From NCBI GenBank assembly GCA_044892525.1, contig CM097885.1, forward strand, positions 24,554,001-24,618,000: DNA of 64,000 bases. Direction: 5' to 3'. Under the pieces are notes generated by a model. That model was not told the DNA's origin and searched no databases. It worked only from the letters and a program-made list of their open reading frames with translations. Of this stretch, positions 1 to 63,290 are shown in pieces. Position 1 is the stretch's first letter. Each line of letters opens with the position of its first letter. This stretch comes from Schmidtea polychroa (Eukaryota). Made by a program: the position numbers and the translations under genes.

Positions 1-232
1 TATAATTGTCGAGCACTCTATGGGTTCACGGACGCCGATAGAAGGCACGTGTCCGATTTATTTCGGTCCCTCATCGAGATTGTTTTCCCAAATGCCTTTC
101 TGTCGTCCATCTTGTTCTAGACAATCGCAAAGTTTAATCACATACTCATTAGACAACAAGAATCATTTATTTAATCACTACTATATTACAAGGTCTGTTT
201 TACTCAGGAGGGGTCGCACTCTCGAATATTCC

Positions 233-700
233 TCAGGATCGTGGAATGGCTGCAGGCTCTTTCGATTTTTCTTGCTCGGCCAGCCAGGCCCTTTTCAATT
301 TGTCTCTTGTATTCCGCCCCAGTCGTTTACGTTTCGGCTTGCTTGCCTGGGCAGGTGGATATATCTTGGCCAGCTTTACCGGAAGTGGGCGAATCTGCTC
401 ACAGAGAGTGTCCTGGATGAACCTTTCGTTCAGTTTACTCTCGAGCGAGCGCACTTGTAGCTTCAGCGCTCGGATTTCGAGTTGATCTTGCTCCGCCTGG
501 GTCTGGAGTTGTGAGATGTGTGTTGTCCGTTTCTTCATCTCAGCCGGACTGAACCAAGTACCTTTGAGTTCTTGGCACTTGACCTTGAGCTTCTCGACCC
601 GACTTCGAAGGTCTTTGGCTTGTTGCTGGGCCTGTTCGCGGTCCTTTCGTAGATTTTCGAGGAATTTGTACACTAAACGAAGATAATAATGAAGTTCCAT
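233..700 (-). CDS. Orphan coiled-coil protein (155 aa) with basic NLS-like patch; probably mobile-element cargo
   Basis: ATG-initiated ORF rich in heptad-like Q/E/K/L, with KPKRKR. GC is higher than the flanks. No recognisable family. Confidence 0.45.
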   Translation of the reverse strand: MELHYYLRLVYKFLENLRKDREQAQQQAKDLRSRVEKLKVKCQELKGTWFSPAEMKKRTTHISQLQTQAEQDQLEIRALKLQVRSLESKLNERFIQDTLCEQIRPLPVKLAKIYPPAQASKPKRKRLGRNTRDKLKRAWLAEQEKSKEPAAIPRS

Positions 701-997
701 AACTAGCCTTCATATGCGTAAAAGTGATTCGATTAATTGTATAGAATTAATAGATGAAGGATAGGGAGGGTCATCTCGTCCCTGGGGACACCCCATACGC
801 AATAAGACCTATATGCAATGACTAAAAGATGATCTATTATACGACGAATATGCACGATGAACAATAATATAAAAGTTCTAATAATAAAAATTTCACAAAT
901 TGTCATAATTGCTACAAAAACAGAAAAATCAAACGCAACACAGTATCACTAATTGTATCACTCAAATAATTTCGTCCGAATTGTCACTACTGATGAG

Positions 998-1408
998 TTA
1001 GACCGGGTTCTTGCGGGGCCTTCCTCGTTTTCGTGGAGGGGCATCTGCCTCCTCCAGCTCTTCGGGGGTTACTCCCTCTGCTTCGGCTCTGAGCTGGAGT
1101 TCGAGTCTCCTCAGCCGCATCTGGGCCACTTCTACTTCGACGGCCGCTCGATCGCGGGCTTCTCGCAACTCATTGTTGGTGGGCTCTGTTTTCACCCACG
1201 CCGGGGCATCGGGCTCTGGGCCACTTCGGATGACCGGACCGTAATTATCTAGGTCCAACCCCCGGTTCCAATCGTGGATCCGGTACCAGATGTACCGGGT
1301 TCGGAGTCGCGTGATCATTTGATTGTAGGCTTCATCACCGTTAGAGTCGTCAGAGTGAGACATTCTATAATACACAGCCTGATATGAGTCTTTAAGGGAC
1401 TCGGACAA
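998..1408 (-). CDS. Orphan protein with short coiled coil and C-terminal AT-hook; start uncertain
   Basis: GC-rich ORF ending PPRKRGRPRKNPV (RGRP AT-hook core). Starts at TTG; the nearest upstream ATG (~1418) is out of frame. Confidence 0.45.
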   Translation of the reverse strand: MSESLKDSYQAVYYRMSHSDDSNGDEAYNQMITRLRTRYIWYRIHDWNRGLDLDNYGPVIRSGPEPDAPAWVKTEPTNNELREARDRAAVEVEVAQMRLRRLELQLRAEAEGVTPEELEEADAPPRKRGRPRKNPV

Positions 1409-1453
1409 CGGAGTTCATAATTAAAACCTTGCATTCAAAGTTAATCATTTTCG

Positions 1454-2597
1454 ATAGTTGTAACTTGAAAAAAAAATTTAATGAAGTTGTATGACTAGAG
1501 AAACGACTGCAATTACAACCTGGATTTCCGCAATTAATTTTTAGTTAAAAAGAAATTCAAAAGTCCTGCGTAAATTTTTAGTAAATCTTACGCTTTAACT
1601 GAATATATCCTAAAATTGATAACTAAACATATCCTAAAATTGATTAGCAATTAACTTTGTTTAATTTAATCATTTAAATTTTCAGAATCTTATTTACCAC
1701 TAGATGGTAATTCAAAATTTTATACATTAATTTTTCCTACTAATTTATGAAATTAGACCATTTTGGTAATTCACCACTAAATTCGGGTGCACTGGGGCGA
1801 TAAGTATTAGTGACGAGCTTAGTTTCTCGTTTACTTACTGCTCCCTCGGTTGTGCTCGTCGTGAGTAGTATAATCTTCTCTGGCTAGCTTGGAAGTAATT
1901 TATTTATTAACAATAAATTTTCAATTTCAGGTACGTTTGGTGGGAATGGCCGATTTTAACTTTTGAGAGATTGTCATACGACTCCTTGCTGGTACTTTTG
2001 TTTTATAGTTTATATCCAATACACATAGTTGTAACTTGAAAAAAAAATTTAATGAAGTTGTATGACTAGAGAAACGACTGCAATTACAACCTGGATTTCC
2101 GCAATTAATTTTTAGTTAAAAAGAAATTCAAAAGTCCTGCGTAAATTTTTAGTAAATCTTACGCTTTAACTGAATATATCCTAAAATTGATAACTAAACA
2201 TATCCTAAAATTGATTAGCAATTAACTTTGTTTAATTTAATCATTTAAATTTTCAGAATCTTATTTACCACTAGATGGTAATTCAAAATTTTATACATTA
2301 ATTTTTCCTACTAATTTATGAAATTAGACCATTTTGGTAATTCACCACTAAATTCGGGTGCACTGGGGCGATAAGTATTAGTGACGAGCTTAGTTTCTCG
2401 TTTACTTACTGCTCCCTCGGTTGTGCTCGTCGTGAGTAGTATAATCTTCTCTGGCTAGCTTGGAAGTAATTTATTTATTAACAATAAATTTTCAATTTCA
2501 GGTACGTTTGGTGGGAATGGCCGATTTTAACTTTTGAGAGATTGTCATACGACTCCTTGCTGGTACTTTTGTTTTATAGTTTATATCCAATACACAT
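1454..2597. repeat. Perfect tandem duplication, 2 x 571 bp
   Basis: 1454-2024 is repeated at 2025-2595 with no difference visible by eye; AT microhomology at the junction. Confidence 0.95.
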
Positions 2598-3479
2598 TTA
2601 CATTTCGTTAATAATAAAGTTTAGTATTTTCTTTTGGTAATGCTTTTATATTTCATATAAAGTATGTATTCGTAATTTATTAATAATTTATAAAGTTGTT
2701 TTTTAGGTATTGCGGTAATCTGTACTATTTTCTCGATGCTTTACTGGTGGTTCAAGTAAACCTGATTAATCATTCCAAGTTATTAAGGTAAGTTTATCTA
2801 ACTCTTAATTTCTGGGGCTACTAAGTTGACTAAAATTTTTCCATCAACTGATAACCTTGGGTTAAATTAAATTATTATATACATGTAGACGCCTATACTT
2901 ACACCTATACCCAAATATATACATCCGCACATATTCTTAACTAAAATTAATAATTCTAACATCGTCTTCGGGGCTGTTACTAAAAATAGAGTTTGGTAAT
3001 TGCGAAGGTTTTTATTGGAGCAAAAGGGTATTCATTCTAAATTTAATCATGAGGGGGAATCATAATTTTTTGATAGTTTAATTTTTATAAAATAATGATA
3101 ACCATTTAATAATATATTAATAATCATGATAATAGCAATCATAATGAGGCTAATGGTAATAAGACTGCTACTGATAATAATATTAAAAATGCTAATAATA
3201 ATAATGGTAGAGCTATACTCCTATCAGATTACTATCTATGAGAGGGTCATTCATAAAAAATTAACAATTTGTATTCTATATATATATTGCAAACATTAAG
3301 GTAAATTCATAAACTATAACTTAGAAATAACTTAAACACCTATGCGATTCTTAAGTATAATACAAATTTGGAGGTAGTGTATACTTATAAATTATATTTG
3401 AAGTTTAATATTAAATTATATTTTATATTTTAAGCATATGATGCATTTAAAATTAGATATTATATTTTGTGATTTAGAC

Positions 3480-4480
3480 ACATTAGCCATCTATGAATTA
3501 TATATTTAAGTATAACATAAATTCATATTTTATAAATTTGGCATATTAGACTTTTATAAATTAGGCATATTAGACATTTATAAATTATATATTTAGGCAT
3601 AATATAAAATTATATTTTATAAATTAGGCATATTAGACCTTTATAAATTATATATTTAGGCATAATATAAAATTATATTTTATAAACTAGGCATATTAGA
3701 CATTTATAAATTATATATTTAGGCATAATATAAAATTATATTTTATAAATTAGGCATATTAGACATTTATAAGTTATATATTTAGGCATAATATAAGATT
3801 ATATTTTATGAATTAGGCATATTAGACATTTATAAACTATATATTTAAGTATAATATAAAATTATATTTTCTAATTTAGGACTATTGTACATTTATACAT
3901 TATATTTTTGAGTATCATATTAAGTTACATTTTACAGTTTAAGTATGTTCTGCATTTACCAATTATATCTTTAGGTATAATATAAAGTTATATTTTCTCC
4001 TTTCGTGCTATCATACATTTATACATTCTATTTTTAAAGATGTATTTTATAATTTAATTTTTATAGATTCTAAATCAAGTTCTATTTTATAATTTAGTAC
4101 TATTACCCAATCCTACATTATATTTTTAAGTATAATATAAAGATGCATTTTATAATTTAATATTTATAGATTATATTTTTAAGTACAATTTTTTAAGTTA
4201 TTTTCCTAATTTACGAATATTTCGCAATTATAAGTTATATTTTAAGCACAATACTAAGTTATATTTTATAATTTAGGGCAATACATATTTACAAATTATA
4301 TCTCTGAGAATAATTTTAGGTTATATTCTATAATTCAGGGATACTACATGTTTATAATTTTTATTTTTAAGGGCAATATCAAGTTATATGTTACCATTGA
4401 GGAACGCTATCTATTTAGAAATCATATAATATAAAATTCTATTTTTTAAATTAAGATGATTATACATTTAGAGATCATGT
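3480..4480. repeat. AT-rich minisatellite, 63-bp period, degenerating rightwards
   Basis: GGCATAATATAA recurs at 3596, 3659, 3722 and 3785. Confidence 0.9.
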
Positions 4481-6399
4481 GTTATTCAAAATTATATTTT
4501 ATAGTTCGGCATATTGTACATCTACAGATTAATAATTTAATGGTAATATGAGGTTACGTTTCACAATTTACTAACATGAGGCCTTCATGAGCTATTCCTT
4601 CCTGATTATATTCTACGATATAATTAACTGAGTCTTTTCATTTTATTATTTACGCCTGTCGAACTTCTTTATGAGGATTAATGCTTTTAATTCTGAGAAA
4701 GATCTTTACAATGACACGAAAATTCTATATATCAATGAGGTTCGACAAACGTTTAGGTATAACGTGGGTTCCTTAATGATATCCAACCGACTGCATTACT
4801 AAATTGTAAGATGATGTTTATTTAAGTCTGAGTTCTACTCAATTATGACCTTAGTGGAAGACTATTGTATGAGATTTTTAATGTTGAGTTTAATTGTGTT
4901 CTGCATTCGAACTCGGGAAGAATGCTTGCTTACACGGCCTTACTGTGACCGCTACGGCAAGCCCTACTGTAGTGTTGAGTCGAAACATCACTGTCGACCG
5001 ATAAATAAATATATGGAGCCATAGCGAAGGGGTTTTATCGACACAACTCCATGGCAGAACCATGAAGTGGCCGACCTCCGATGACCGAACAAAAAAAAAT
5101 ATATAAAGGATATTGCATGTCTGCATGTTTCATTTTAGAAAAATTCATTACCATCAAATGTAGGACTAAATAGAGACGCTCTGAGACGCCGCTGATCAGT
5201 CGTATTTAAAGAAATAAAAAATTAAATAAAATAAAAATAAAAAAATAGGTCTAAAAAAATGATTTACATTAAAATAATTACATAAGTGCTTATTCATAGA
5301 TAAAACATATATAAATCAAAAAATACCTACTATTAATTTTTCGGCAAAATTTTCGTCAACAAAAAATTGGCATAAAGTGATTGATTGTGACTGAAACGTG
5401 TCAGTATATATACCTATTTTGTACACGTGTATGTATTGATGCATTAAAACAAACTCGAATTCTTTTTATTCCAGAATTTTCTATTTCGCGATTTTGATAT
5501 TTTTAATGGCAATTTTTGTGCCATAATTTTTGTTTTTATTTTTAAATTTTTATTTTTTAATTATTTTTCATTAATTTTACGTCCATGGTGGATTTGGAAC
5601 GGTTCCAGAACATTCTATATTACTTTTAATTTAATTTTTATTTTAACTGATGTTTTATGAATTTCTTTTTAAGATTTTTTTTATTTTTATTACTAATTTA
5701 TTTATTTTTCTAAATTTTATTGTTTAAGGTAGCTTTTATGATGGTCATCGCCATTTTTATGGAATGTTCTGGGTTTTTCTGGAATTTTTTACTGTTTTTA
5801 CCATCTTTTAAGTTATTCGAGTTTGCTTTTTGTAATTCTATGTTTATTTGGTTATTTTTGAGTTAGATTTTGCATAACTTCTTGCTTTTGTATAATTTTT
5901 ATTTAATTTCTGTGTTTATATTTTTTGTTGTTTCTCTTTTAATCATTATTGTTTATTTGATGTAATTTTAATATTTAACTATACTTTTTGCTTTTTGCAT
6001 GCTGTGTACTTACACATTTCAGTCACAATTATAAGTTTGGGTCTAGAATTCAGTTCTAGCCCAACATAAAACACTCGGGGGCCCATAAAATTGCGACCCG
6101 CAATTTAAATCAGAAGATAAATAAGATTATTTTCAGAATACTTGCACTATATTACAAGTGCCTACATGCAAATTGGGTCCACGAGCTACAGGGTCGTGAC
6201 CTCAATACCCACATACATAAAAATGCTACTATTACACTACATTTTACAGATGGGTTGAAAGATGAAGAAAAAGAACGACCGAGGTCGGTCCACATTAAAA
6301 TAAAATTATCATGCTCAGGAATCAATGTTATCAGTCATAATCAGTCTCAGTCTTTAAAATCACAATTGTTTGATAATGTTTTATAATGTCACGAAATGT

Positions 6400-7407
6400 T
6401 TATACTGTCGTGATGTCACAATAATAGAATTCGGTTGTTCGGGATCTCGTCTCGATGACGGCTCTGGTTTCAATGTTTGGGGAAGATTTGAAGTATCTTG
6501 GTTGGTTCGTTGTTTGGACTAGCTGTTCTTCCATTGGGATACGAATACTTCTTGATTGTTCTTTTAGTTTGAGGGTTTTGCTTCTTTCTTTACTGGGATT
6601 GGGTTTGAGTGCAATCAGGCTCAGTACGGTGATGTTTATCATTAGGCTTGCCGCTAATAGGATCAATATTGTGAGGGGTTCAGATTCTCTTAATTCTACT
6701 ATTTTGGGCTTGTTCATCATTTCTCCCAATTGGGTTGTATCTGCAATTTCTGATTTTTCGGGTTTGTTGAATTTGTTTTCTTCCGAGGTGACAACTTTCT
6801 TTATTTCCTCTAGGGTTTTAATCATCTTCTCGGAGTTCATTGGGTTTTTGTTTATGGTAGTTAGGATTTCTCTTGTCATTTTTTTCAAGGTCTTCGTTAC
6901 CTCGTTTTAAATGCTGGGTTCCTCTTTGATGGTGGAAATTATTTTTCCTCTCATTTCCTTTAAAGATTTTACTACTATTTCGCAATTGCTTGAACGTCCA
7001 TTGGCGGCTGTTGTTACCTGTTGTTTTATTTCCTCTAATATTATTACCATCATTCTCATTGCGGCTGGGTCTGTTTGGGATTCTCTCTTTGCTTTCTGAC
7101 TTTGACATTGTTTGGCTAATGTTGCTATCAGGGTTCTGATAACTTTCAGTTCTTGTTCTAAGATTGTTTTTATTGTCTGAGCCATTTGCACTTCCGTCGA
7201 ACTTTCAGTTGTTGGTGGACATTGCGAACATTGCAACTTGATTTGTTCGCATTCCTCATTGGGTTTTTCGCAGATTGATTTAAAGCTACTACATGTGCTA
7301 TCTTCTCTGCGATATGGGTATTCTTTTTGACATCTAATCATTGATTCTTCAGCTTGCAGGATTCTTGGCATTGTCATTATAATCATCACCACGATTAGGC
7401 TTCTCAT
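6400..7407 (-). pseudogene. Type-I membrane protein (~335 aa): signal peptide, Cys-rich domain, helical stalk, TM, tail with PMEE; one in-frame stop; TNFR-like or env-position gene
   Basis: ORFs 6907-7407 and 6400-6888 share a frame and are separated only by TAA at 6907-6909. Signal MRSLIVVMIIMTMPRILQA, six clustered Cys, TM LTILILLAASLMINITVLSLIAL. Confidence 0.65.
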
Positions 7408-7483
7408 CTTTACATATACATATACATTAACAATAATTACTTGGCTTTATTTACAATTTATTTACACAGTTATTTTGTCTCAT

Positions 7484-8251
7484 TTATTGGGAGTCACCGA
7501 CCTCATCTCTTAATTTTACGGGAGGTTCAGGTGCTCGTCTTTTGCTCAACTCGTTCATTCTTATTACTTCGAGTTGCGTTGCTATCAACTGTCTTTTTAA
7601 TTCTGGTATTCCTTGTAATTGCTTCTCTTTACTTTTCCATTTTCTCTGTCTGATGGTCATTGTCGTCTGCAGTGTTTGCATGCTTCGTCGTTTTTGATTT
7701 AAAATTCTCCGGTAATTTTCTTTCAACTTCCATTGTTTTTCTGTTTCCTCTCTTTGTTCCTTGATCTCTTCCTTGAGTTTTGCATTTCTCTTCTCGACTC
7801 GTTTACTTTCTTGCATTCTCGTTTTTGCATAAGCATATTGTGCTTCTAACTGTTCGATATAAACTTGATCGATATTTACAATCTTTTTCAACTTCCTTGT
7901 TTCTGATTTCCAATAATCTTCGATTACTACCTGAGCTCTCAATTCCATTATCTCCTGTCTCAGGTTTTTATTTTCTGTCTCTTTTCGTTTCGATTCATTT
8001 GTTTCCCTCAAAATTTCTTGCTTGACAGTGTTTATTAATCGTCTTGATTGAACAATTTGCTGTCTCAATCTCGTAGTCTCTACATTTTGATTTGCAATTT
8101 TCGTTTTGAACAAATTCCTGCTGACTCTCCATTTATTACTATAATATTTCATCGATTCTTGTTTGATTGGCATCGTATTCTGGCTTTGTTCAGGTTGGTC
8201 GTTTGACCTTCTTTCGTTACTTGTTGATTCTCTTTCTTTTAAATAATTCAT
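7484..8251 (-). CDS. Orphan basic coiled-coil protein (~255 aa)
   Basis: Open frame from the ATG at 8251; K/R/E/Q-rich heptads. Confidence 0.55.
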   Translation of the reverse strand: MNYLKERESTSNERRSNDQPEQSQNTMPIKQESMKYYSNKWRVSRNLFKTKIANQNVETTRLRQQIVQSRRLINTVKQEILRETNESKRKETENKNLRQEIMELRAQVVIEDYWKSETRKLKKIVNIDQVYIEQLEAQYAYAKTRMQESKRVEKRNAKLKEEIKEQREETEKQWKLKENYRRILNQKRRSMQTLQTTMTIRQRKWKSKEKQLQGIPELKRQLIATQLEVIRMNELSKRRAPEPPVKLRDEVGDSQ

Positions 8252-8434
8252 ATCTACAAAAATATACACATCATATTTCCTTTCGTCTTCTTTTTATTTT
8301 GAATTTTTGATTTTGTAGTTTTTATTTTTATTTTTATTTTTATTTTTTTTATTTTATTTTTTTTATTTTTTTTTTTTTTGAAATCATTCTTTTTTTTGAA
8401 ATCAATCTTATTTACAGGCAACATCTCTCTTCGA

Positions 8435-10032
8435 CTAAATCCATGTTGCGTTATTTTGTTCGTTATTTTTTTCGAAGCCTTCATCTGTTGTGACTTCGGC
8501 AGGCTGTGGCACTTGCAACGGGAACGGGTAGAGTGGCATTAATAATATTGGTGGTTGTCTCCTTAACCGATCTAATTCCTCCCGCAATTCCGTTGAGATG
8601 TTTATTTCTTCATCCAACAAAAACGTTAATCTACTTTCGTTTTCTATCATTTCGTCTAATTCCTCTTCCAATCGTTGGGTTCTTTCCAGCGCTTTTAGCT
8701 TCTCGATTTCTGCCCTCAGATTCGCTTCGTTTCCTTCGAAGCATCGTTTTATTATTTCGGTTTCCTGTTTGGCTTGTTGAATTGCCTTATCGCACTCTTC
8801 TCTACATTTCGCATTAAGCTCAATCTGATGCTTCCAATTTACATCCCTTTAAGTGTACATACCTATATATCCGTTCATCTCTTGATTGGCCTCGTCCACT
8901 TCCGTTCGTAATTGTCGGATCTGTCGAGCTTGGTCTGTCAATTGTTGTTCCCATCTCTTTTCTTGGTATTCATACCTTCTTATCTCTCGAGTCTGTTTCT
9001 TTATGACTCTCCGTCTACCGTCGCTGGTCCGCGTCTTGATTCTATGTTCTCTACTCAGTCGGCTGATCTCATCTTTTTGGTTTTCTATCGTTTCCCACAT
9101 TTTGAATTCGTCTCTTTCCATCAGTTTCATTGGCAACTGTCTTAACTCTTCTTTGGTCTCTTTCCAATTCTTTTTCCATTTTCGGGCTTGATGCTTGAGA
9201 CACTTTTCGGTTTCCTCAGATTTCTGCTGTCGTTTTCTCCACTCTACTTCTTCTTCTTCTCGCTGTGTAGCCCTCGTTTCGTAAAATTCTTGGTCTGCTT
9301 TTCGTAGTCTCAGTTGTTCCTTGCTACTGATTTTCCAATAGAGCACTTGAGTTTGACTTCCTAGATATTTATACTTCCATTTCTGAGCTTGTATTTTTAT
9401 TTGTGTGTTAATTCGCTCTAATACGTTATCCTTAATGATGGGTTCTCTGTGCGGTGTTCTCCTCCCTTGACCCCTGACTTCGTTTAGGGTCTTTTTGCAT
9501 CTTTCCCATTTTTCTTTCATCATTGCGCATTTGCCCTTTACTTCTTCTAGTTCTGCCTTATAACCTCGTATTTGATGTTCGTGACTATAATTCTGCCTTG
9601 TTTGGAGTGTTTCGTATTTTCGCTTCCATTGTTGCGCTTGTAGTTTTATTCGTTCCGTTTTACGCTGTTCCTCCTCGCATTGCTCTTTTGCTTCTCTAAG
9701 TTGTTCTTTTTGCATTATTATTTCTCCGCATAACCCAACTATCTCCATAATCCGTTGAGTTCGTAAATTCGAGAGCTCTTCCTCTAATTCTTGGTATGTT
9801 GAGGTATTTCTCACATCCTCGGTTAATTCCTCTACCTGTTTCATCCATTTCTCTTTTGTTGCTAGCGCTTCCGCCTTCTCCACTTCTAACTCTTGTTGCT
9901 TTTCTCATACATGGTTTTGTACATTTCTATTTCTCTCTTTACTCTTTCTGCTTCGTAAGCTTGTATGATGGATTTGTACTGTTCAAGTTGTTGCATCTCG
10001 GTCTCCACATAGGTTTGCGATTCCTTATTCAT
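8435..10032 (-). pseudogene. Orphan long coiled-coil protein (~530 aa) with one frameshift and one in-frame stop
   Basis: ATG at 10032 (MNKESQTYVETE...), frameshift near 9900, ORF 8849-9883, then in-frame continuation past TAA 8849-8851 to the stop at 8435. Confidence 0.6.
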
Positions 10033-10114
10033 TGTCTAAATAATTACACTATTACTACTACTATTATTTCATATATTTATTATCTACACTTTATACACGG
10101 AATTTTAATTTTTG

Positions 10115-11294
10115 TTATTGATCGGAGTAGCGAAATCCTTTGATTCGCTGCGCAATCCTCTGTCTACACATTGGACATTCCTTTACTTTTCTACTACACG
10201 TGGCACATGCGATCAAATGTCCGCATTGCATATGAATAACTTCTACACTCCTCTCCCAACACATAGTACATTTGATATCTCGTAAGATAGCTGCTTTGAC
10301 CATTGATTCTTCTTTTATTTTTGTTTCAGGTTTTTCTCTATACTGAGTTATCGCTCTGATCATATCGTACGTTGTTGTTGGTATATGCACGTTTTTCTGT
10401 AGTTTCTCTCTAATCATTTTCTTTACCCTTGTCGTGCCTATTCCGGCTACTTTCAACGCTCTGCGCATGTTGGGCTTGTCTACGACTTCGTCGACCTCTT
10501 CTTCTGTTACCAGTACTTCTGGATATTCGGTTTCTTGTTCGCTGTGATATAGGCACCATGCTTGATGTCTTATTTCTGGCATGCCTTCTTCTGGTAATCT
10601 CTGTTGACTTTCGCATCTTTCACACTTGAGTATTTGCTTTTCTGTTAGATAGAATCCTCTTATTGCTAGTTCAGGTCCTCTCGTATCATCTCCGAACGTT
10701 TTCATTCTATTATCTGCTATTTGCGTGAGGAATTCGCCTTCACAAGTTGGAACATATTCGTCAACGATTCTGGTTATCGCGATTGTCATTTTCCCTCCTT
10801 TTTCGTCTTCAGTTTTCAATTTCTCCAGTGCTTCGTATTTTATTTCAGGTTTGTTGTATACATCAAATCCCATTACGAATGGACAATTTGGGAATCGTTT
10901 GCGATGTTCTTCCTTTGGGTGCTCTCCTTTTTTCCATTCTGCTAATTTCCCGTTACAGAAGCGGCACGTTACTTGATCGGGTATCTCTGGTTTTCCGGTG
11001 AAGAAAAATCTGTTGAGTGCCAGCGCTCGACTCTGTTCCTCGGTGAAAATGGTCTGGTGTTCAAATGACAGGTATCTCTGGTTTTCACATCTGAATTGCT
11101 CATTGCTCCCCTGCCTCAAATCTCCCTGCACTAAGCTATAACCATTTCCCACAATTCTTCGATAGTACGTGAAGCCACTGGGTTTTGTTCTGCTGACTTC
11201 CGAATTTCCTACCTTTTCTCCGGATGACGTATCGTACTCCTTCTTTCATTGTGATCGTTTTCTTTCGGATATTCGGTCTCGCTTGATTAATCAT
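10115..11294 (-). CDS. Inhibitor of apoptosis (IAP/BIRC-like): BIR + degenerate BIR + C-terminal RING
   Basis: Canonical BIR C-x2-C-x16-H-x6-C (CRFC...EEHRKRFPNCPFV), a second BIR-like unit (RMKTF...GFY...CERC...H..C) and an IAP-type RING CTMC...CGHLIACATC...CPMCR. Open frame 10115-11152; the upstream ATG at 11294 is frameshifted relative to it. Confidence 0.9.
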
Positions 11295-11435
11295 CTATAA
11301 TAAATTTCATCATTTCTTTTTGCATTTTTCTTTTTCTAATTTTTATGGTTTTGGTGAATTATGTTACTTTATACAATAGCTTTATAATTACTTTACATCG
11401 TTTTTACAAAATATTTACAGTTTCCCTCTATCCGT

Positions 11436-12791
11436 CTATCGTATTTCTATTGTTGGTCCTTCCTCGTCTAGTTCGATTAGGAAGAATATAGTGTCCTTTT
11501 CTATGTAGGAACCGTCATTAAACTGGTATAACTGCATAAACTCTGCTGCTCCTACTGCAGTATTAACCTCTGTAATTGGTTTATTCCGTGCTGGACTTGA
11601 TGCGTGAAAGTATATTATGTGCGTCCGTTCTCTTCCTAAGAGAGATATTCTTACTTTGTGTCGGAATGGCCAGACTATTAGGTCATCGAAGTCTCCTTTA
11701 CAGATCTGCATATATAAGGACATGCACCGATCTTTAAACTTTCCCTCGCCATTTGGAAACCATATCAATTTCATCTTGTATCCATGTTTCTTGGCGTAGA
11801 ATGGTTTGCTCACTATCGTTGTCTGGATTCCTTGCTTTGCTCGCTCCATTATTTCTGTTATTCCTTGGATTTTCCACATATATGGTAATATTGGTAGTTC
11901 CTCTGTTGTCAGTTCCTTTGCCGTCCATTTGGTTTGTAGTTTAGTTACTTCGACTAATTTGTCGTCTAATTTCAACATTCTTTGTATTACGGCTTCTCTC
12001 GTATTCTCGAAGCTTTCCTGTGAGCTCAGCATTTCTTTTATCATGATTTTATGTGATTTGAGTTCGTCTTTGACGTCTTCGATTGCCCTTGCTGTTAACT
12101 CTATTGCTCTCATCATCTTTTGCATGTGTTCGAATGTATTCTCCTCCACATGCTTCTTCATTTCTTCTGCTGGTAATTGTGCTCTACAATCGAATGTCAC
12201 CATTGGGCATTTTATTGCTTTTCTCGCGCATATCTCCCAATGTTCCTTTAATCTGACGTTGTTAATTTCTCCACACTCGTTTGGGCATCTCCCTGTATAT
12301 TCGTCGCAAATCCGTCTTTCTACTGCGTTTCGATGTTCCATTTCGATCTCTCTCCAATTAGCAGTTTCTCCGCAAAATTCACATTTTTCCGTCCGTGCTT
12401 CGCATTCTCCTTTATGTTTGGTTTTCTCTTTTCGTAAAAACTTTACTGTACATGCTTCGCATTCTAATTCTACATTTTCACATACGTCGGTATGAGCACT
12501 TAACTCCTTTACTCGACCTGTCCATTCGCATGACCTTTGAGGACATCTTATTTTTACTTCTCTGATTTCTCGGTTCATTGCTTTATCCGGTATTGTGCCA
12601 GTGGGAACCAACTTAAATGCTTCTCCACACCCTGGACAAGTTTCTCGCTTTAGCTTGGCTAATCTTATATCACACCCTCGGCACAATCTACAACCGCATC
12701 GAGTTTGACTTGCTCCAATTAATAGTCTTCTACATGCTGCATCTACAATTATAACTTTTAAATCTTGGGATTCTACTTGGTTATACTCTAT
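11436..12791 (-). CDS. TNF receptor-associated factor (TRAF): RING, TRAF zinc fingers, coiled coil, MATH
   Basis: RING-like QTRCGCRLCRGC...CPGC, DKAMNREI, CEWTG, Zn fingers, and MATH motifs WKI, SKPFY..GYKM, NGEG, KGDFDDLIVWPF. Frame is open to an ATA codon at 12791 (possibly a mutated ATG). Intronless. Confidence 0.9.
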   Translation of the reverse strand: MEYNQVESQDLKVIIVDAACRRLLIGASQTRCGCRLCRGCDIRLAKLKRETCPGCGEAFKLVPTGTIPDKAMNREIREVKIRCPQRSCEWTGRVKELSAHTDVCENVELECEACTVKFLRKEKTKHKGECEARTEKCEFCGETANWREIEMEHRNAVERRICDEYTGRCPNECGEINNVRLKEHWEICARKAIKCPMVTFDCRAQLPAEEMKKHVEENTFEHMQKMMRAIELTARAIEDVKDELKSHKIMIKEMLSSQESFENTREAVIQRMLKLDDKLVEVTKLQTKWTAKELTTEELPILPYMWKIQGITEIMERAKQGIQTTIVSKPFYAKKHGYKMKLIWFPNGEGKFKDRCMSLYMQICKGDFDDLIVWPFRHKVRISLLGRERTHIIYFHASSPARNKPITEVNTAVGAAEFMQLYQFNDGSYIEKDTIFFLIELDEEGPTIEIR

Positions 12792-13289
12792 TTATTTACA
12801 AGATTATTTACATTTTACTCCTTTCTCTTACTCATTTTACTCTGGGGGGGGGGGGGGGGGGTACTGAACTTTGATTTCAAATCTAATTCAGGTACAAAGT
12901 CGATTGTAATGGTTGTGGTTTGGTCTAACTGCATATTGCCGAGGACAGCATCTGTGTTTAATATAACTTTAGAAACTATCCTAGAGCGGATGAGCATTTG
13001 TAGCCTTGGAAACGAAAAAAAAGTCAACAGCCGAAACAATGCATTACGATTGATCTATACTCAAGGTAATTATCTATTTAAAAATGATTGCCATTATTTG
13101 AAAATTTCGTTTTAGTATTATAAAATTTTAAAAACTCTAAACATAAATTTTGTATTTTACTAATATCAACTTTTTTAAAAAATATTAACAAAAGTTTTGA
13201 TTTTACAAATATCAAAATATTTTTCAATTTGTTTAAGTGTATTAAAATAACAATTTCTTTTGAATTTTTTAAAATTTTTAATAAAATTA

Positions 13290-14786
13290 ATGACCAAGGC
13301 AGAAAATCAGAGAACAACTAAAGCATCCGACTTCAAATTTGGAAAAGAAATCGGTCATGGGTCGTTCTCAACTGTAATGATAGCTAAGGAAATTTCATCC
13401 AATAAACATTATGCTGCAAAAATTATTGATAAAGTTTTTATTTCTAAGCAGCGAATGGTTAATACTGTTATGATTGAAAAAGAAGTTCTTCGAAGAATAA
13501 ATCATCAGTTTTTTGTATGTCTCAATTATACATTCCAAGATCCAGAAAGATTGTATTTTATTATATCATATGCTGAGCGAGGAGAACTTTTATCTCATTT
13601 AACAAGACTTTCGTGTTTTGATTTAACGTGTACACAATTTTATTCCGCGGAAATAATTCTTGCATTAGAATATTTACATGGAATTAACGTTGTTCATCGA
13701 GATATAAAACCAGAAAATATTTTATTGAGTGAAAATATGCATATAAAAATTTGTGATTTTGGCAGTGCAATTATTATCGATAGACCAGATCTCAAGCCTT
13801 CTTCTTTTACAGGTACAGCTCAATTTGTTTCTCCAGAAATGCTGGGATTCAGTAAAGAAACACGTGATAATAGCAATTCAGATGAACCGAACTCTGATTC
13901 AGAGGAACATAGCGAAATTGAAGTTAAACGAACCAGTTCACCTGATAATTCTAGGGAAATATTATACCTAATGGACTTTTGGGCATTAGGATGTATCGTC
14001 TACCAAATGTTATCTGGACGAATGCCATTTCACGTCAGGCATTCACGGCATGAATACGAAATTTTCCAAAAGATCCGTGGTTTAAAATATGAGTTCCCAG
14101 TTGGGTTTGATGATACTGCTAAAGATTTTGTCTCTAAACTTCTTGTATTGAACCCACTGGAAAGATTAGGAAATCCATCCAGTGGAAAACATGCTGCTTT
14201 GAAAGCCCACCCCCTTTTCAGTTCAATTAATTTCGAAATTATCGGATCACAAAAACCTCCGTTATTACTTCCCAACATTGAACCCATAGTTCACAGTAAT
14301 TGGGACGAAATTCCTGTTGGTTTTGAAGAAGCTTGGAAATTCAATATCAAAAAAGAATTTCAAGAAATGGAAAAAGCTGATAAACAGAAATTATTGCAAA
14401 ACCAAGAAAAACTAAATCCATTTCATAGATTTGTACGAAATCGATTGATCATAAAACAAGGCATTTTGTACAAACGACGTGGATTATTTACTCGTAAAAG
14501 GATGTTTCTATTAACTGAAGGACCTCATTTATTTTATGTCGATCCCGATGCAATGCAATTTAAAAAAGAAGTCAATCTTAGCCTAATTACTGGCATAGAA
14601 GTAAAAAATGACAAAGTATTCTATATCGTTACTAAAAAGCGAACATATTTTCTTGAAGATCCTTCAGCAAAGGCTGACGAATGGAGACAGAGTATCGAAT
14701 CGATTTGTTTAGAATATTATGGATCATTTAAATTGTCCCCTGGCACTTCCACTCAAACGTCTGTAGTTACATTACCTGAATCATAA
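13290..14786 (+). CDS. PDPK1: 3-phosphoinositide-dependent protein kinase 1 (AGC kinase + C-terminal PH domain), intronless
   Basis: DFKFGKEIGHGSFSTV, HRDIKPENILL, DFGSA, SFTGTAQFVSPE; PH domain KRRGLFTRKRMFLLTEGPHLFYVDP is typical of PDK1. First ATG at 13290. Confidence 0.93.
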   Translation: MTKAENQRTTKASDFKFGKEIGHGSFSTVMIAKEISSNKHYAAKIIDKVFISKQRMVNTVMIEKEVLRRINHQFFVCLNYTFQDPERLYFIISYAERGELLSHLTRLSCFDLTCTQFYSAEIILALEYLHGINVVHRDIKPENILLSENMHIKICDFGSAIIIDRPDLKPSSFTGTAQFVSPEMLGFSKETRDNSNSDEPNSDSEEHSEIEVKRTSSPDNSREILYLMDFWALGCIVYQMLSGRMPFHVRHSRHEYEIFQKIRGLKYEFPVGFDDTAKDFVSKLLVLNPLERLGNPSSGKHAALKAHPLFSSINFEIIGSQKPPLLLPNIEPIVHSNWDEIPVGFEEAWKFNIKKEFQEMEKADKQKLLQNQEKLNPFHRFVRNRLIIKQGILYKRRGLFTRKRMFLLTEGPHLFYVDPDAMQFKKEVNLSLITGIEVKNDKVFYIVTKKRTYFLEDPSAKADEWRQSIESICLEYYGSFKLSPGTSTQTSVVTLPES

Positions 14787-15135
14787 CTTTTGTTTTTATC
14801 TAAATTTATTTGTCATATAGAAAAAATGTGAATTTGAACGGGTTTTAATATAATAATTTAATATTGGTTTGTTTTTATTTTAAATTAAATGAATAAAATC
14901 ATATATATACATATTAATAATTATAAATATAATCGCATTGTTTTAATATTGCCTTTATTTCGTAATTGATAAATTTTACGTTGTGAATGTATTTTACAAC
15001 TGATTTAAATGAAACCAATAGGAAACGAGTGGTTCGATGTCATGTGAATCTGCGTGCAACCAATCATAATTTTATGATTCACTACATTAAATTCATTTTT
15101 AAAACAAATTAAATCACTTAATTAATTTTTAGACA

Positions 15136-16590
15136 ATGTCACAATTTTATGGCGGATCCACAATATTGGCACCTCTATCGAACATCATGGGTATTCCAGT
15201 GGATCAAATTAATTTTATTGTGTGCAGTTTATTGTCAATCGGATTGGGTCAGATTATGCGACATAAATTCCCTCCTTCCAAATTCTCAGGAAGCACAAGA
15301 GGAATCATAGAAGCATTTTTTGGAATACTAATTGCTCTTTTTTGCTTTGGATACCAAGTCAAGTATTTATTGCTACAGTCAACAGTTTCCTATGTAATAT
15401 TATTATTCTTGCCTTCACAAATATCAGCGCATTTGGTAACGTATTGGTGCATGGCTTTCATGGCGGTGGTTCATTTATACAGAATGCATTACGATTACGG
15501 AGGTTATACTCTTGATATATCTGGTCCGGTTATGATTCAAACCCAAAAACTGACCAGTCTTGCATTTAATCTTCTTGATGGGCATAGAATAAATCAAGGA
15601 ATGAAACTGGATCAGAAGAATCATGAATCTCATGCTGTGAGAAAACTACCAGACGCAATTAAGTTTTTCGGTTACACATTCTACTTTCATGGTGTATTAG
15701 CGGGTCCTTTTGTATTCTATAATGAATATAAAGAATATATCACTGGATATGATGACAAGCATATCCCATGTTCTAAAAAGCAGTTATCTTCAGCACTTTG
15801 TTTATCAGTAATTCATGGATTATTAACAGCATATGTTGCACCACAGTTTCCTTATATATTTGTTTGCAGCACCGATTACCAACGGATGCATATGACTCGT
15901 CGAATAATGTTCACAATGATTTCTTTTTTCCTGGTGAGACAAAAATATTACTTTGCCTGGTCAATGGTTGAAGCCGGCGCTCTTAGTACTGGATTAGGAT
16001 ATTGCGGAAAGGATAAAAACGGGGAGAATAATTGGTCAAAAGTTAAAAATTACGATTTCATGGCAATTGAAAGCGGAAGCAGTTTGAAAGTGTTGGTAGA
16101 CGGATGGAATATCTCCACGACAAGATGGCTCAGAGAATTGATTTATGAACGAGCTCCGTTGTTCTGTCGGACGATTCTAGTCTTCACTGTCAGTGCATTT
16201 TGGCATGGATTTTATCCGGGATATTATTTGATGTTTTTGACATTTTCTCTCTTTACATTTTGCGCTAGATCCGCCCGGAAACACATTCGGCCATTGTTCG
16301 TTGTCAGTCCGATTACGCTTCAACTTTATCATGTTCTAACGAAAATTTTCACGAATTTGGCTTTGAATTACGGGCAGGGGCCATTTTATTTGCTGGAATT
16401 TCAATCGGGGCTTTTGTTTTGGAAGCCATATTACTTTTTCGGACACGTTTTGGCAATGTTCTGCGTATTGACCTTGCAGTTCCGGCCAATAATCAACGAC
16501 AAAGTCAACCAAATGAACAATGTTTTTACCAGAAAAGCCCAATATCGATTTCAGAAATTAAAGATCCATTTGCAGAATAAGTTGAGATGA
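15136..16590 (+). CDS. MBOAT-family lysophospholipid acyltransferase (MBOAT1/2-like), intronless
   Basis: Multi-TM protein with YTLDISGPVMIQTQKLTSLAF, AGP, KYYFAW, WNISTTRWLR and catalytic SAFWHGFYPGYY. Confidence 0.92.
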   Translation: MSQFYGGSTILAPLSNIMGIPVDQINFIVCSLLSIGLGQIMRHKFPPSKFSGSTRGIIEAFFGILIALFCFGYQVKYLLLQSTVSYVILLFLPSQISAHLVTYWCMAFMAVVHLYRMHYDYGGYTLDISGPVMIQTQKLTSLAFNLLDGHRINQGMKLDQKNHESHAVRKLPDAIKFFGYTFYFHGVLAGPFVFYNEYKEYITGYDDKHIPCSKKQLSSALCLSVIHGLLTAYVAPQFPYIFVCSTDYQRMHMTRRIMFTMISFFLVRQKYYFAWSMVEAGALSTGLGYCGKDKNGENNWSKVKNYDFMAIESGSSLKVLVDGWNISTTRWLRELIYERAPLFCRTILVFTVSAFWHGFYPGYYLMFLTFSLFTFCARSARKHIRPLFVVSPITLQLYHVLTKIFTNLALNYGQGPFYLLEFQSGLLFWKPYYFFGHVLAMFCVLTLQFRPIINDKVNQMNNVFTRKAQYRFQKLKIHLQNKLR

Positions 16591-44771: not shown

Positions 44772-48428
<3,657 letters not shown>

Positions 48429-48470
48429 TTTCCCCCCTCCTTGATCCCTTCTAGCGGATCAACAACCCAT

Positions 48471-50757: not shown

Positions 50758-50899
50758 AATTGCCCTCTATCCAGGATACTCCATCACCTTTCCATTAAAT
50801 ATCGGCAGCTGTAAGGGTTTCAATCCCATTATGAACTTCTGTTTTTCATTGGGCTCTTCACTCCTAAATGATTTCTCTGGGACCTTCCGCGACTCTACT

Positions 50900-51640
<741 letters not shown>

Positions 51641-52028
51641 TCATTGTATCACAAGTTTCAGTATAAGAATCATCTGCAAGTCTGAGTAATAAACAAGATT
51701 TTCCCACACCAGAATCTCCAATTAATAGGAACTTGACTAAATAGTCACACTCTGGATTCATTTGTAGATTCATTTCGAATAACCGATATACCAAAAATTC
51801 CACAAAGAACACTTCCAGAATTCTATCGATTCAAAAAAACCACAGGTTTAAACAATTCTACCAAAATTAATAAGTTCTACAAAACATTTCATCAAAAACT
51901 TACAATTTAGCAATAAAAACCTACTTCTCGCGCCTGTGTGCGCACACCAACAAGAATCGGTCTAACCAGACCGCGCACACAGACGCGATAGAAAAGAAGC
52001 ATGCAACAAACTGCCAGTCAGAGGCAAT

Positions 52029-52390: not shown

Positions 52391-54136
52391 TTTTATAATA
52401 AAAGTTTTCTTTAAAATCATATTGAAACAAAATCCAAAATAAATCCATTTTTCCTACTAGAGATTAAATATTAGAATGTTAGATTCAAAACAAATATTTT
52501 AATGATAATTTCAGAAATAAAACTTTATTTTCGATTTTTGTATATAAGCATTAAAACCGCGAGAGCCATCTGCTGTGCCTGTGCGTGATGCCGCCACTGA
52601 GCATTCCATGTAGATTTGGTTCTGCCAAATAAGTAATAATATAATAATATTTGTCAATGTTTAAAAAATCAACCCGAAAGGACACTCACCTAAATTTGGA
52701 TATATTTTGGGCTCAAAATACTGATCAAATCAAAAAAATTTAATTTCATTATTAATTTATGATTTTAACTTACAATTGGATTTCAGTCGTGACAGTCCGA
52801 TCAAGATTCCCAGAAAGAAACATATTTGACCACATTGGAGCCTATCCAAAGCTTTAAGAAGATTGAACATAATCTCTACATTATATGTGTGATATGGTGA
52901 TTTTTCCATTTATCAACTAGTTGATAAATGTTATTTTGATCTTGGCCTGTTGAAAATATAGTAAATTAATATGTGCCTGTTTGATAGTAGTAAAATTAAA
53001 TTAAATACATAGTTTTGTGATTCAATATTTAGCTTACAGTGAACTGGGGTCCCAAAGGCTTCAATAATTCGAAAAAAAAAGTTTTATACAAATTGAATCT
53101 GTCTATTATTTGAGTCGCATTATTAAAACAATAATTTGTGGCAAATGTATAAGAAAAAAAAGTGTAACAAAAGGTTGAACATTTTCATCGCTTTAGATTC
53201 CATTAATTCCTATTTCAGAATAACTAAGAATATTTTTACGCTTAGAAAACAATAAATATCATTTGAACACAAAATCTTTATTTAAATTTTCATACAACCA
53301 AAAATTTTTGCATAAAAAGTGTTTTTATAAACAACTTTTTGTCAGTGAATTTCTTCTTAGGCTTTTTTATAGTGGGGAAGATTTACTTTTAGGTTTTGTC
53401 ATCGGTACCAAGTTCTTTGTGTTTTTTCATTGAAAAATTATTGTTAGGTCTTTTAATGGGAGAATTTATTCTTAAACTTTACTTTTGAGATTGTAAAATC
53501 CCCATAGAAATCGTCGTAAAATTTCTGAGACCAAAAATGCCTGACAATATAGTATGATAAAAATACTGTTCAAATCAATTTAAAAATATTTGACACCACA
53601 ATTCTCTACAAAAACCTGACACTTAAAGTATTTGCAGTTCCTACCTAAAAAATCCAGTTCAATAAAGCCTGAGACCACAAATTTCTGTGCAAAACGCTTG
53701 GCATTATAGTTTTACCAAAAAAAAATCTCACTTTAATGTGACCATTTCCTAAAATTATGTAGAAAAATGTGCACATTAAAGAAATAGATAGGAAAAATAA
53801 TTTTAGCAAAACATTTTATTAAAAAGATATTTGCAAACAATTTTAACAATCAAAATAAATCATAAAATATAAAGATAAATATGTATACAATCACTAAAGG
53901 CAACGTGAGTTTTCAGTAAGGGACTATTAGGATTCTCATCCGTTTTTAAATCACTAAATAATTCCATAAAATTTTATTTAATAAAAGATATCTAAAAAAA
54001 AACTTGTCTGTCCTTATTTTTGTTATTTAAACAAATTTCAGATTTTCTTAAAATATTTCTTTGATAAATTTCTTCTTTTTAAAATATTTTTCAATAAAAA
54101 TATTTTTAAAATTTTTACCAAATTTCTTATTAACCT

Positions 54137-59921: not shown

Positions 59922-62329
59922 CTTGCAACATGTTGAGTGTGAACAGTACCTTTGTGAGCAATACCAATAGGAGGACAAAATATCTTGTCGGATAAACTTT
60001 AACCATATATAAGAACTTACAATATGCTACCCAAATGGTTTTTTATTGATTGATTTGTTGTATATATTGATACATCAAAATGTCAGATAATACTGATGTT
60101 CATAAATTAACACAAAATACTCAAAATGGCCTAAATGTTTCCTATATGGTATTGTTAAATATTTTAAAATAATAATAATTTTGGATAGTTTTGTAATTTA
60201 TAATAATAATCTTAATAATTTGAAAATAATAATCTTGAAAATAATAATAGTAATAAAACTTATTGCTGATTGAATCCACCCAATGGCGCATGAACGAATT
60301 GTATTGGCCCGTTTTAATTCATGCGTATATGCATTAGCAAATCAAAATGTCAATTCATAAACACAGAAATTTCAATCGTATAATTAAACGTAAGCCCGTT
60401 TATTGACTAATTTTATCTGTACTGTATTATATGAGTCACAAAATCCCAATTAAAGTAATGCACAATGATAAATTTGGCGTTCCTAATGTTGGGCTAGAAC
60501 TGATTTCTAGACCCAAAACCATACTTTGTGACCGAAATGTGTAGGTACATAACATGCAAAAAGCAAAAAGTATAGTTAAATATTAAAAATTACACCAAAT
60601 AAACAATGGTAATTAAAGGAGAAAACAACAAAAAAAAATAAACACAGAAATTAAATAAAATTATACCAAAAGCAAGAAGTTATGCAAAATCGAACTCAAA
60701 AATAACCAAATAAACATAGAGTTACAAAAAACAGACTCGAATAACTTAAAAGACAGTAAAAATTCCAGAAAAACCCAGAACATTCCATAAAAATGGCGAT
60801 GACCATCACAAAAGCCAGCTAGAACAATAAAAGTTAGAAAAAATAAATAAATTAGTATTAAAAGTAAAAAATCTTAAAAAGGAAATTCATAAAACACCAG
60901 TTAAAATAAAAATAAAATTAAAATTAACATGGAATGTTCTGGAACCGTTCCAAATCCATCATGGACGTCAAATTAACGAAAAATAATTAAAAAATTAAAA
61001 ATTAAAAATAAAAACAAAAATTATGGCACAAAAATCGCCATTAAAAATATCAAAATCGCGAAATAGAAAATTCTGGAATAAAAAGAATTCGTGTTTGTTT
61101 TAATGCATCAACACATACACGTGTACTTGCACACACAAAAATAGGTATATATACCGACACGTTTCGGTCACAATTTAATCACTTTGTGCCAAATTTTGAT
61201 CCAGACTTTGTCAACGTCAACAGTGAGTACCTTAGCTTAAATTTTTATTATGTATCTATCCATGATTTATTTATGTTAAGATTAAAGTGGTTTCATATTT
61301 TGGTTTTTTTTAAATTTTCAAGTGATGTACGAATGATCAGCAGCGTACCGGTATTCCTGCGTCGCTGTTCAGTCCTGCATCCAATTTAGTTAAACTTTTA
61401 TAGGACTGCATGCAGACATGCATTATCGATATTATATTGATCTTATATTTAATATATTATATGGTTCTTTTTGTTTGGGTCCTTCGGAGGTCGAACCACT
61501 TCATGGTCCTGCCATGGAGTTAAGTCGAGGAAACCCTCCGTCTGACTCTTCGTATCTATTAAAGGTCAGCCGTAAATGGTTGACTTAATATACAACATTA
61601 AGGTTTGTCCGAGTGGTCACAGTGGGGCTGCGGAGGCAATAATTCTTCCCGACCTTTTACGTAATACACAATTAAAATCAACATTCAAAATCATGAACAA
61701 CAACTCTACACTAAGGTCCTAATTTGAGTAGAACTCATACCTAAACTTACACAATTCTGCAATCACATTAATGTAGTTGGTTGATCAGTAATAGCAATTT
61801 CAGTTATACTTAGACATATGCCGAATTAGATTTTGTAATAGAAGTTTATGGTAAAGTAATAGAAATGAGAGAGATATTCGGCATACGTATAAGTATAACT
61901 TAATCTAGATAGGTTAATTCAATGTAAATGTAGATATTCTAAATCCAAAAGGTTAAATTACGAATTCCCACTTTAAAATATTTATAAAGGTATAAGTACT
62001 TAGTTGTAATATTCTTTTTGTTAATTATAAAGCTATAAGTTATAAATAATTATGAGATTTTAAATACAACTTATGCTGATCCTGAAAATAGAAATTGGTA
62101 ATGGAGAAACTTTGATTATAAACCATGGATGAAGGATAGCAGCGAATAAACTTTAGTATAAAAATTTTAACTTAGAACTAGTTAGATATAGACTATAGAT
62201 GCGATAGAACTCTGAAATTATAACTCACAAATAATACCGAGAAATCTGTAAGAAATTTGAGAAACAATGTTGATCATAAAAAGGAATTCATAAAGAGGTC
62301 GACTATAAAATTATAAATCCGAAGATATA

Positions 62330-62640
62330 GAATTATGAATTATAAAATACAAAATTAGAAATTGTAGAATATAGAATTGTAAATTATAAAATATAAAATT
62401 ATAAATTATGAAATATAAATGTATAAAATATAAAATTATAAATGGTAAAAGGAAAAATTATAAATTATAAAATATAAATTCCTAAATCGTAAAATATAAA
62501 ATTATGAAATGAAAAATTAGAAATTATAAAATATAAATTTGTAAATTATAAAATTATAAATTGAAAAATGGAAAATTATGAATTATAAAAATATAACTTT
62601 ATAAATTTTAAAACATAAAATTATAAATTATAATTATCTA
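62330..62640. repeat. 7-bp (TATAAAA/TATAAAT) degenerate satellite
   Basis: Directly visible. Confidence 0.85.
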
Positions 62641-62759
62641 TATAGGACATGCTCCTAAATATTGACTGTAAATACTTATATAGTTGTCAAACAGGTATAA
62701 GAATAAACTATGAGGATTTACAGTTAATCATTATCAGCATCATAGTAGTACTGCTCATA

Positions 62760-63290
<531 letters not shown>

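Follow-up and report, generated by a model that had tools for sequence, protein, structure and literature searches.

The window analysed here, a 64,000-nucleotide stretch of Schmidtea polychroa DNA (GenBank assembly GCA_044892525.1, contig CM097885.1, positions 24,554,001 to 24,618,000), raises the question of why genes for a TRAF, an inhibitor of apoptosis protein (IAP) and a receptor-like membrane protein stand packed together beside a long repeat, and whether they act as one pathway. A previous interpretation, made from the letters alone (the sequence-only reading), took them for a survival-signalling cassette carried by a giant retroelement. We find that the block at 6400-12791 is, judged by its sequence, the block of accessory genes at the 3′ end of a giant Gypsy element of the Burro1/GYPSM1 type, and the membership of this element in the Burro family is almost certain. 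As that reading had described, the block consists of five open reading frames (ORFs), co-oriented, intronless and closely spaced, which encode the TRAF, the IAP, two coiled-coil orphans (CC1 and CC2) and a type-I membrane protein, called the receptor below. All five are on the minus strand, and their coding strands contain 40-48% A, compared with 35% and 29% in two adjoining host-type genes. The repeat, expected about 330 bp away, starts with TG after 334 nt and is a true long terminal repeat (LTR), whose boundary at 6066 recurs at window position 60487 and in other copies with unrelated flanks.

A full copy elsewhere in the genome (one copy read end to end) has the order LTR, primer-binding site (PBS), RING ORF, polyprotein, ORF150, TRAF, IAP, CC1, CC2, membrane protein, LTR. 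The polyprotein contains, in this order, gag knuckles, a MATH domain, a weak BCL2-like segment, a mononegavirus-like envelope (env) fusion protein, protease (PR), reverse transcriptase (RT), RNase H (RH), integrase (IN), ankyrins and a C-terminal membrane segment, with Pfam matches to zf-CCHC, MATH, Monjiviricetes_fusion (E=7e-45) and Ank_2. All four matches of the BCL2-like segment, between MATH and env, are to Bcl-xL and are weak (E=0.7-1), and its place agrees with the published map. The Gypsy-order PR-RT-RH-IN lies between paired multi-kb LTRs in a total of more than 30 kb, and the LTR-to-LTR distance is ~28-35 kb. In the full copy, whose locus is rearranged on its 5′ side, the LTR is ~4.8 kb long and the LTR pair is 99.7% identical over the compared 1,492 bp. 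Just behind this LTR is a PBS-like sequence, which we take to resemble the 3′ end of tRNA-Pro. Between its paired LTRs this copy has every Gypsy and env domain, which supports the proposed carriage by a giant Burro-type element. Two further features of the element were observed. The leader between PBS and gag holds a 160-residue IAP-type RING ORF with an acceptor-like context in front (L034 5731-6213), and the end of the polyprotein, past the ankyrins and an acidic stretch, holds another segment that resembles a membrane protein, in which two hydrophobic stretches are followed by a tail of 90 residues (L035 ~8900-10000; L006 1-690).

A genome search with the DNA of the block, in which 22 of 1993 candidates were scored, gave 21 further places with 92-95% identity; every one of them runs on into the LTR, and 17 span the whole block. 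With the receptor as query, at least 122 copies were found (122 scored of 831 candidates), and the element probably has several hundred copies. Among the polyprotein-MATH matches listed, 12 of 13 have the receptor gene ~17 kb downstream on the same strand, and 7 of 13 lie within open frames of 4,785-4,791 residues. The block is multi-copy and linked to gag-pol and LTRs, so the alternative of a single-copy gene cluster is not borne out. The copy closest to that of the window (L003) is cut upstream by a 5S-rDNA-associated insertion and is uninformative for linkage. Beside it, Polinton/Maverick-like genes (ATPase, integrase, capsid-like, polB) and a 5S-rDNA-associated non-LTR element were found (L031 2119-9968; L032 6460-8220).

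To assess selection, dN/dS was calculated pairwise among intact natural copies, with near-duplicates dropped and 7-14 copies per gene. The values, all between 0.06 and 0.31, were 0.18 for TRAF (7 copies), 0.20 for IAP (9), 0.13 for CC1 (8), 0.24 for CC2 (14), 0.31 for the receptor (13) and 0.06 for ORF150 (11). Within the receptor, dN/dS is 0.09 in the Cys domain and 0.19 in the tail; within IAP, 0.10 in the BIR and 0.48 at the N-terminus; within TRAF, 0.31 in MATH versus 0.09-0.18 in the remaining parts. The Cys domain and the BIR thus rank among the most constrained parts, and MATH and the IAP N-terminus are looser. Changes shared among copies yield lower values than those confined to one copy, which is what selection on source elements would produce. 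We are confident that selection on the element maintains the cargo, and this selection is purifying in all six genes.

The origin of one cargo gene can be traced. The receptor has a signal peptide, one six-cysteine domain, a helical stalk, one transmembrane (TM) segment and a 61-residue tail. A HMMER search of 1.84 billion proteins returned a sole relative, P0001 (E=5e-6), with the same six-cysteine spacing, a signal peptide and a TM segment. Used as a query, P0001 led to a host locus in this genome in which the Cys domain is interrupted by a short intron, and the exon of this locus gave 23 non-element matches, mainly clustered on one chromosome (150 scored of 342). All 16 host relatives that were fetched share the pattern C-x4-P-[FY]-x6-C-x2-[FY]-x3-C-x-K, and in each of them a phase-1 GT comes next, always at the same codon. 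The element gene is without this intron, so it was captured from a spliced mRNA of the host family, which has at least 16 genes. No Pfam family matched this host family of single-Cys-domain membrane proteins. Its loci are at C3 ~86.1-86.4, 111.1 and 117.5-119.1 Mb, C2 122.7 Mb and C4 18.6 Mb of G000 (L036, L040-L054).

Whether the receptor truly belongs to the TNF receptor (TNFR) superfamily is less clear, and we lean only slightly towards it on the predicted structure. The receptor has the TNFR-type layout, a type-I topology with an extracellular Cys-rich domain (CRD). The CRD was modelled from a 17-row alignment as a beta-hairpin plus two helices (pLDDT 71); the single-sequence fold was poor (pLDDT 58). 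In the atlas comparison the best matches were TACI/BCMA CRD clusters, with scores of 0.79 for the element domain and 0.83 for the host domain, both below the atlas evidence mark (0.9). These two domains, 42% identical, placed 9 and 10 of their ten best family matches in one clan, as did a third of shuffles. According to the available text of PMC8024323, the Grindelwald CRD has a hairpin-plus-two-helix topology likened to Fn14, BCMA and TACI; the element receptor is like these single-CRD TNF receptors and BAFF-R in being a type-I protein with one small Cys-rich domain and, as predicted, this hairpin and two helices.

Several points weigh against a TNFR relative. All HMM and fold searches were blank, the long helical stalk and presumably also the cysteine spacing differ from the single-CRD TNF receptors, and the atlas scores stay below the mark. 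A word-index homologue search was equally blank for the receptor, but it found nothing even for TRAF and P0001 returned itself alone, so that this search is insensitive here. These results, together with the single relative outside this genome, would fit a planarian-specific small Cys-rich surface protein, captured as a decoy, a superinfection block or a means of cell targeting. The single-CRD type-I layout, the hairpin-plus-two-helix model and the TACI/BCMA clusters drawn by two divergent sequences speak against this alternative, to which we give somewhat less than an even chance. The tail of the receptor contains PMEE, which we take to agree with the TRAF2/3-binding consensus. It occurs in 12 of the 13 copies aligned, but such a motif also comes up in 31% of shuffles, which makes it chance-level alone, and it is absent from the tail of P0001, the sole host-type relative whose tail was available. 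Of what had been claimed for this protein, the receptor-like identity stands, with a homologous spliced host family and a TNFR-like topology.

The other two identities given by the sequence-only reading hold. The TRAF matches Pfam MATH (E=1e-25) and zf-TRAF, its RING and zinc-finger part matches TRAF6/TRAF2 N-termini, and it has the RING, zinc fingers, coiled coil and TRAF-type MATH of the family. Its MATH is closest to TRAF3 among solved structures and 35% identical to the MATH of the polyprotein. The canonical receptor-peptide groove is partly substituted relative to TRAF3 in the cassette TRAF and kept in the polyprotein MATH, so the latter may be the likelier binder of a canonical receptor motif. 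A MATH tree of 14 rows revealed no host donor for either element TRAF among 10 non-element matches (of 150 scored, 1551 candidates). Some of the non-element matches lie in open frames of 454-478 residues, that is, in nearly intronless full-length TRAFs (G000 C2 16.19, 16.28, 29.21-29.22 and 35.91 Mb; C4 15.01 and 28.40 Mb). The IAP matches Pfam BIR (E=2e-14) and RING (E=2e-11), with the BIR plus C-terminal RING of the family, and its helical segment may be UBA-like. It has one full and one degenerate BIR and no CARD, which is not the cIAP type, with its three BIRs, TRAF2-binding BIR1 and CARD, and its first BIR scores best with NAIP and with XIAP BIR2/Livin-type BIRs, above the TRAF2-binding cIAP BIR1. 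A ligase that binds caspases or IAP antagonists fits these features better than a TRAF-recruited cIAP. In the genome search with the BIR, element copies make up nearly all of the 150 scored rows, and host IAP donors are out of reach.

These properties bear on the proposal of one receptor-TRAF-cIAP chain to NF-kB, which has so far gained no support. The tail motif is chance-level, the BIR is non-cIAP-like and the cassette groove has diverged, and all three weigh against a joint pathway. A complex prediction for cassette MATH and receptor tail, run without alignments, scored 0.00 and speaks neither for nor against it. An NF-kB output is itself doubtful, because S. mediterranea has yielded no clear NF-kB orthologue, as far as the available part of PMC13563047 states. 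Searching this genome for the Rel/NF-kB (PF00554) and TNF (PF00229) domains gave no match, but the controls gave none either, genes here being intron-split, so that these blanks carry no information. Published work, again in the portions available, points elsewhere: TAK1-p38/JNK with xiap and traf2-1 governs infection-driven tissue loss in planarians (PMC4993586), and TRAF-like genes influence cell survival (PMC7586133). We consider it rather doubtful that receptor, cassette TRAF and IAP sit in one complex. The cargo could instead be a set of selected accessory genes with separate host targets (caspases for the IAP, innate adaptors for the TRAF, the cell surface for the receptor), clustered where the 3′ region tolerates insertions and forming no pathway. 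The three points above favour this, as do three unrelated orphans interspersed among the cargo genes and the TRAF upstream of ORF1 in the Dugesia tigrina element (PMC6431247, in part). However, TRAF twice, an IAP, a BCL2-like segment, an extra RING ORF and a TNFR-like receptor share one signalling neighbourhood, and the receptor tail is conserved. On this evidence, separate targets are a reading that we hold to be possible, at about one chance in three.

The spacers between the genes suggest how the cargo is expressed. An acceptor-like context (a T-rich stretch with YAG 0-3 nt upstream) was found at 7 of 8 accessory ATGs, the receptor being the exception with AAG, and at 0 of 72 internal in-frame ATGs, 5 of 55 LTR ATGs and 2 of 120 host non-coding ATGs, by a rule defined after the pattern had been seen. 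In one copy, TGTAAATA stands 17-19 nt past the stop in five of the six inter-gene spacers and TGTATAAA in the sixth. Across 17 fetched copies, a post-stop motif of the TGTA-x-ATA type was found in all 80 spacer instances located, 17-21 nt past the stop; elsewhere, it occurs 0 times in the 5.8 kb of coding DNA of that one copy and once in the coding DNA of the window. Presumably it resembles a PUF/Pumilio or 3′-processing element. For spacers so alike in build, with an acceptor and a post-stop motif, one mRNA per gene is the simplest reading, and each block gene is, on these signals, probably expressed as its own spliced mRNA. The spacers might also be short internal promoters or translation-reinitiation signals, with the TGTA motif as a TATA/forkhead-like box. 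That one motif variant is TGTATAAA would agree with this, as would the lack of AATAAA enrichment in the spacers (shuffle P 0.2-0.9). But the distance of the motif is fixed from the upstream stop and not from the downstream ATG (58-132 nt), and the trinucleotide alternates between TAG and CAG, as an acceptor would. We therefore regard promoters or reinitiation as improbable.

The copy in the window is damaged. Its 5′ side is cut off at ~12828, with the loss of ORF150, the sixth block gene that lies upstream of TRAF in the family. About 112 bp are absent at ~12743, so that the TRAF start and first 34 codons are gone, and a stop at 11246-11248 lies close to the IAP start. CC1 has a frameshift at ~9900 and a stop at 8849-8851, and the membrane protein has a stop at 6907-6909 and has lost its usual stop, giving a read-through frame that ends at 6400. 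The decay noticed by the sequence-only reading is real for four of the five genes here and does not extend to the family, in which 113 of the 122 receptor copies are without internal stop. Decay is a property of this truncated relic; the element family is young and largely intact. The four broken genes are what could suggest that the cargo merely hitch-hikes neutrally or that a cluster of host genes is decaying beside a repeat, an idea refuted to the point of near-impossibility by hundreds of linked copies, mostly open frames and dN/dS far below 1.

We favour, with moderate confidence for the explanation as a whole, that a young, high-copy, env-bearing Gypsy element captured cargo from host mRNAs, as traced above for the membrane protein. 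Planarians use spliced-leader trans-splicing. A subgenomic mRNA for each gene would be made through the acceptor before its ATG, by alternative cis-splicing or by spliced-leader trans-splicing, and the repeated 3′ element after each stop may serve each mRNA. The job of the cargo would be counter-defence, in which the expressing cell is kept alive and TRAF-TAK1-p38/JNK immune and death signalling is damped. The IAP may bind caspases or IAP antagonists and ubiquitinate them, the BCL2-like part of the polyprotein may block mitochondrial death, the two TRAF modules may act as competitors of host TRAFs or divert them, and the receptor could be a TNFR-superfamily-like decoy or a self-clustering signal platform. 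An anti-death or immune-damping role of the cargo is fairly likely. A bolder version, which we consider unlikely, is that a probably active env-bearing element captured a member of an undescribed, expanded single-CRD TNFR-like host family and, with its own TRAF, IAP and BCL2-like protein, runs a private receptor-to-ubiquitin-ligase survival circuit, expressed gene by gene from an operon-like block through repeated splice and 3′-end signals and possibly the host spliced leader.

The LTR contains two ORFs, ORF-A and ORF-B, whose proteins are conserved between LTR variants ~69% identical in DNA (ORF-A, dN 0.27 and dS 1.86; ORF-B, pN 0.26 and pS 0.83; two LTR variants each), and ORF-A has 2765 first-look candidates across the genome. 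They possibly encode trans-acting regulators. No polypurine tract was found directly before the 3′ LTR in the window (6067-6110, minus strand) or in six other copies; in its place are a conserved short inverted repeat (~6088-6106) and a GC-rich stretch. Within the window LTR, an exact 571-bp tandem duplication (1454-2595) and a 63-bp tandem array (3400-4160) were observed. CC1 and CC2 gave no Pfam match and no TM segment. The features of the window are listed in Table 1.

Table 1 Features of the element copy and its LTRs in the window.
Feature	Position	Strand	Remark
3′ LTR	1..6066	-	begins TG at 6066, ends ~160 bp beyond the window
LTR ORF-B	233..709	-	coiled coil and basic stretch
LTR ORF-A	998..1363	-	~121 aa; coiled coil and C-terminal AT-hook-like motif
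3′ untranslated stretch	6067..6399	-	
Type-I membrane protein gene (receptor)	6400..7407	-	328 aa in intact copies
PMEE, candidate TRAF2/3-type motif in tail	6526..6537	-	
TM segment of membrane protein	6607..6675	-	best 19-residue hydropathy 2.59
CRD of membrane protein	7219..7332	-	predicted beta-hairpin and two helices
Post-stop motif of CC2	7459..7466	-	18 nt past CC2 stop
CC2, basic coiled-coil orphan	7484..8251	-	255 aa; undamaged in window copy
Post-stop motif of CC1	8409..8416	-	19 nt past CC1 stop
CC1, coiled-coil-rich orphan	8435..10032	-	532 aa
Post-stop motif variant of IAP	10090..10097	-	TGTATAAA; 18 nt past IAP stop
IAP gene	10115..11294	-	BIR, degenerate second BIR, conserved helical segment, C-terminal RING; 392-393 aa in intact copies
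Post-stop motif of TRAF	11412..11419	-	17 nt past TRAF stop
TRAF gene, full-length type	11436..12743	-	RING, TRAF zinc fingers, coiled coil, MATH; 474 aa in intact copies
Post-stop motif of lost ORF150	12805..12812	-	TGTAAATA
5′ truncation junction	12828..12862	-	beside G/C run; opposite-strand host-type genes beyond
Separate LTR of same family	60487..63011	+	opposite orientation, continuing further; not the partner of the window copy

Elsewhere in the window, divergent single-exon PDK1-like kinase and MBOAT genes (13251-14786 and 15133-16590, plus strand) start ~460 bp past the truncation point. A Bel/Pao-like element with paired repeats (48002-52028, minus strand) has a tandem ubiquitin-like segment (50900-51640) and an adjoining Rab1-like fragment (47353-48207). 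A small ordinary Gypsy with 237-bp LTRs (53925-58504, minus strand), two hAT-like transposases (34636-37296 and 45555-46952, both minus strand) and a Tc1-like element (24655-26037) were also found.

If the private survival circuit of the bolder version exists, a cell that turned the element on would survive better than its competitors among the stem cells and their descendants. Burro elements fill planarian genomes, and the suggestion that they interfere with apoptosis now breaks down into parts open to test: six genes under selection, the mRNA junctions predicted for them, the host family that donated the receptor, and two genes in the LTR. With its 16 or more genes, that host family may be the planarian counterpart of TNF receptors, acting upstream of the TRAFs whose expansion is already known (PMC6109357, in part), and our literature search found no report of such a family. 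The hundreds of element copies will also push up the number of TRAFs and IAPs counted in the genome, and they can mislead RNAi or expression work on the host genes.

The closest known systems are Burro1/GYPSM1 and Burro2-4 of Schmidtea mediterranea, which likewise exceed 30 kb and have multi-kb LTRs with tandem repeats, very high copy number and a BIR gene (Jurka 2007 and Grohme 2018, as given in the available text of PMC6431247). That text describes MATH_TRAF_C, BIR, ankyrin, BCL2-like and in-frame env in Burro1/GYPSM1, so the IAP that the sequence-only reading mentioned for a giant planarian element is real. It also reports one giant polyprotein with gag, three CCHC knuckles, MATH, BCL2-like, env, PR-RT-RH-IN and ankyrin, as here, where the BCL2-like match is weak (ORF1 of 4,873 residues there, 4,791-residue frames here). 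Meddling with host apoptosis and ubiquitination was proposed there in 2019 with no test made, and BURRO1 is expressed in differentiated cells upon PIWI loss (PMC8532177, in part). The Dugesia tigrina Burro-like element also has its TRAF in a separate accessory ORF, but upstream of an ORF1 without MATH, whereas here there are both a polyprotein MATH and a free TRAF, the latter downstream of pol (PMC6431247). In its available text, the Burro account has no mention of an added stand-alone TRAF, a captured receptor, spacer signals or LTR ORFs, some of which may figure in Grohme 2018 or Repbase. Our literature search found no report of a receptor or spacer signals in Burro and met the cargo described in PMC6431247 alone, with no further detail in the accessible parts of PMC11410931, PMC6109357, PMC7958881 and PMC13238120. 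The captured receptor and its host family, the second TRAF, the selection evidence, the spacer code and the LTR ORFs go beyond the published accounts found; the free TRAF and the orphans may be drawn in Grohme 2018 or Jurka 2007.

Anti-apoptotic cargo in Burro is already known in kind. Viruses carry comparable modulators of death and immunity, namely baculovirus IAPs, herpesvirus LMP1, poxvirus TNFR decoys and viral BCL2, and complex retroviruses have accessory genes. Unlike these, the present element is a Gypsy retroelement, and it carries a TRAF adaptor itself plus a receptor. Like them, it has host-derived genes with putative anti-death and TRAF-engaging roles, and its accessory genes are placed downstream of pol/env, before the 3′ LTR, as well as within the LTR, and would be expressed from spliced mRNAs.

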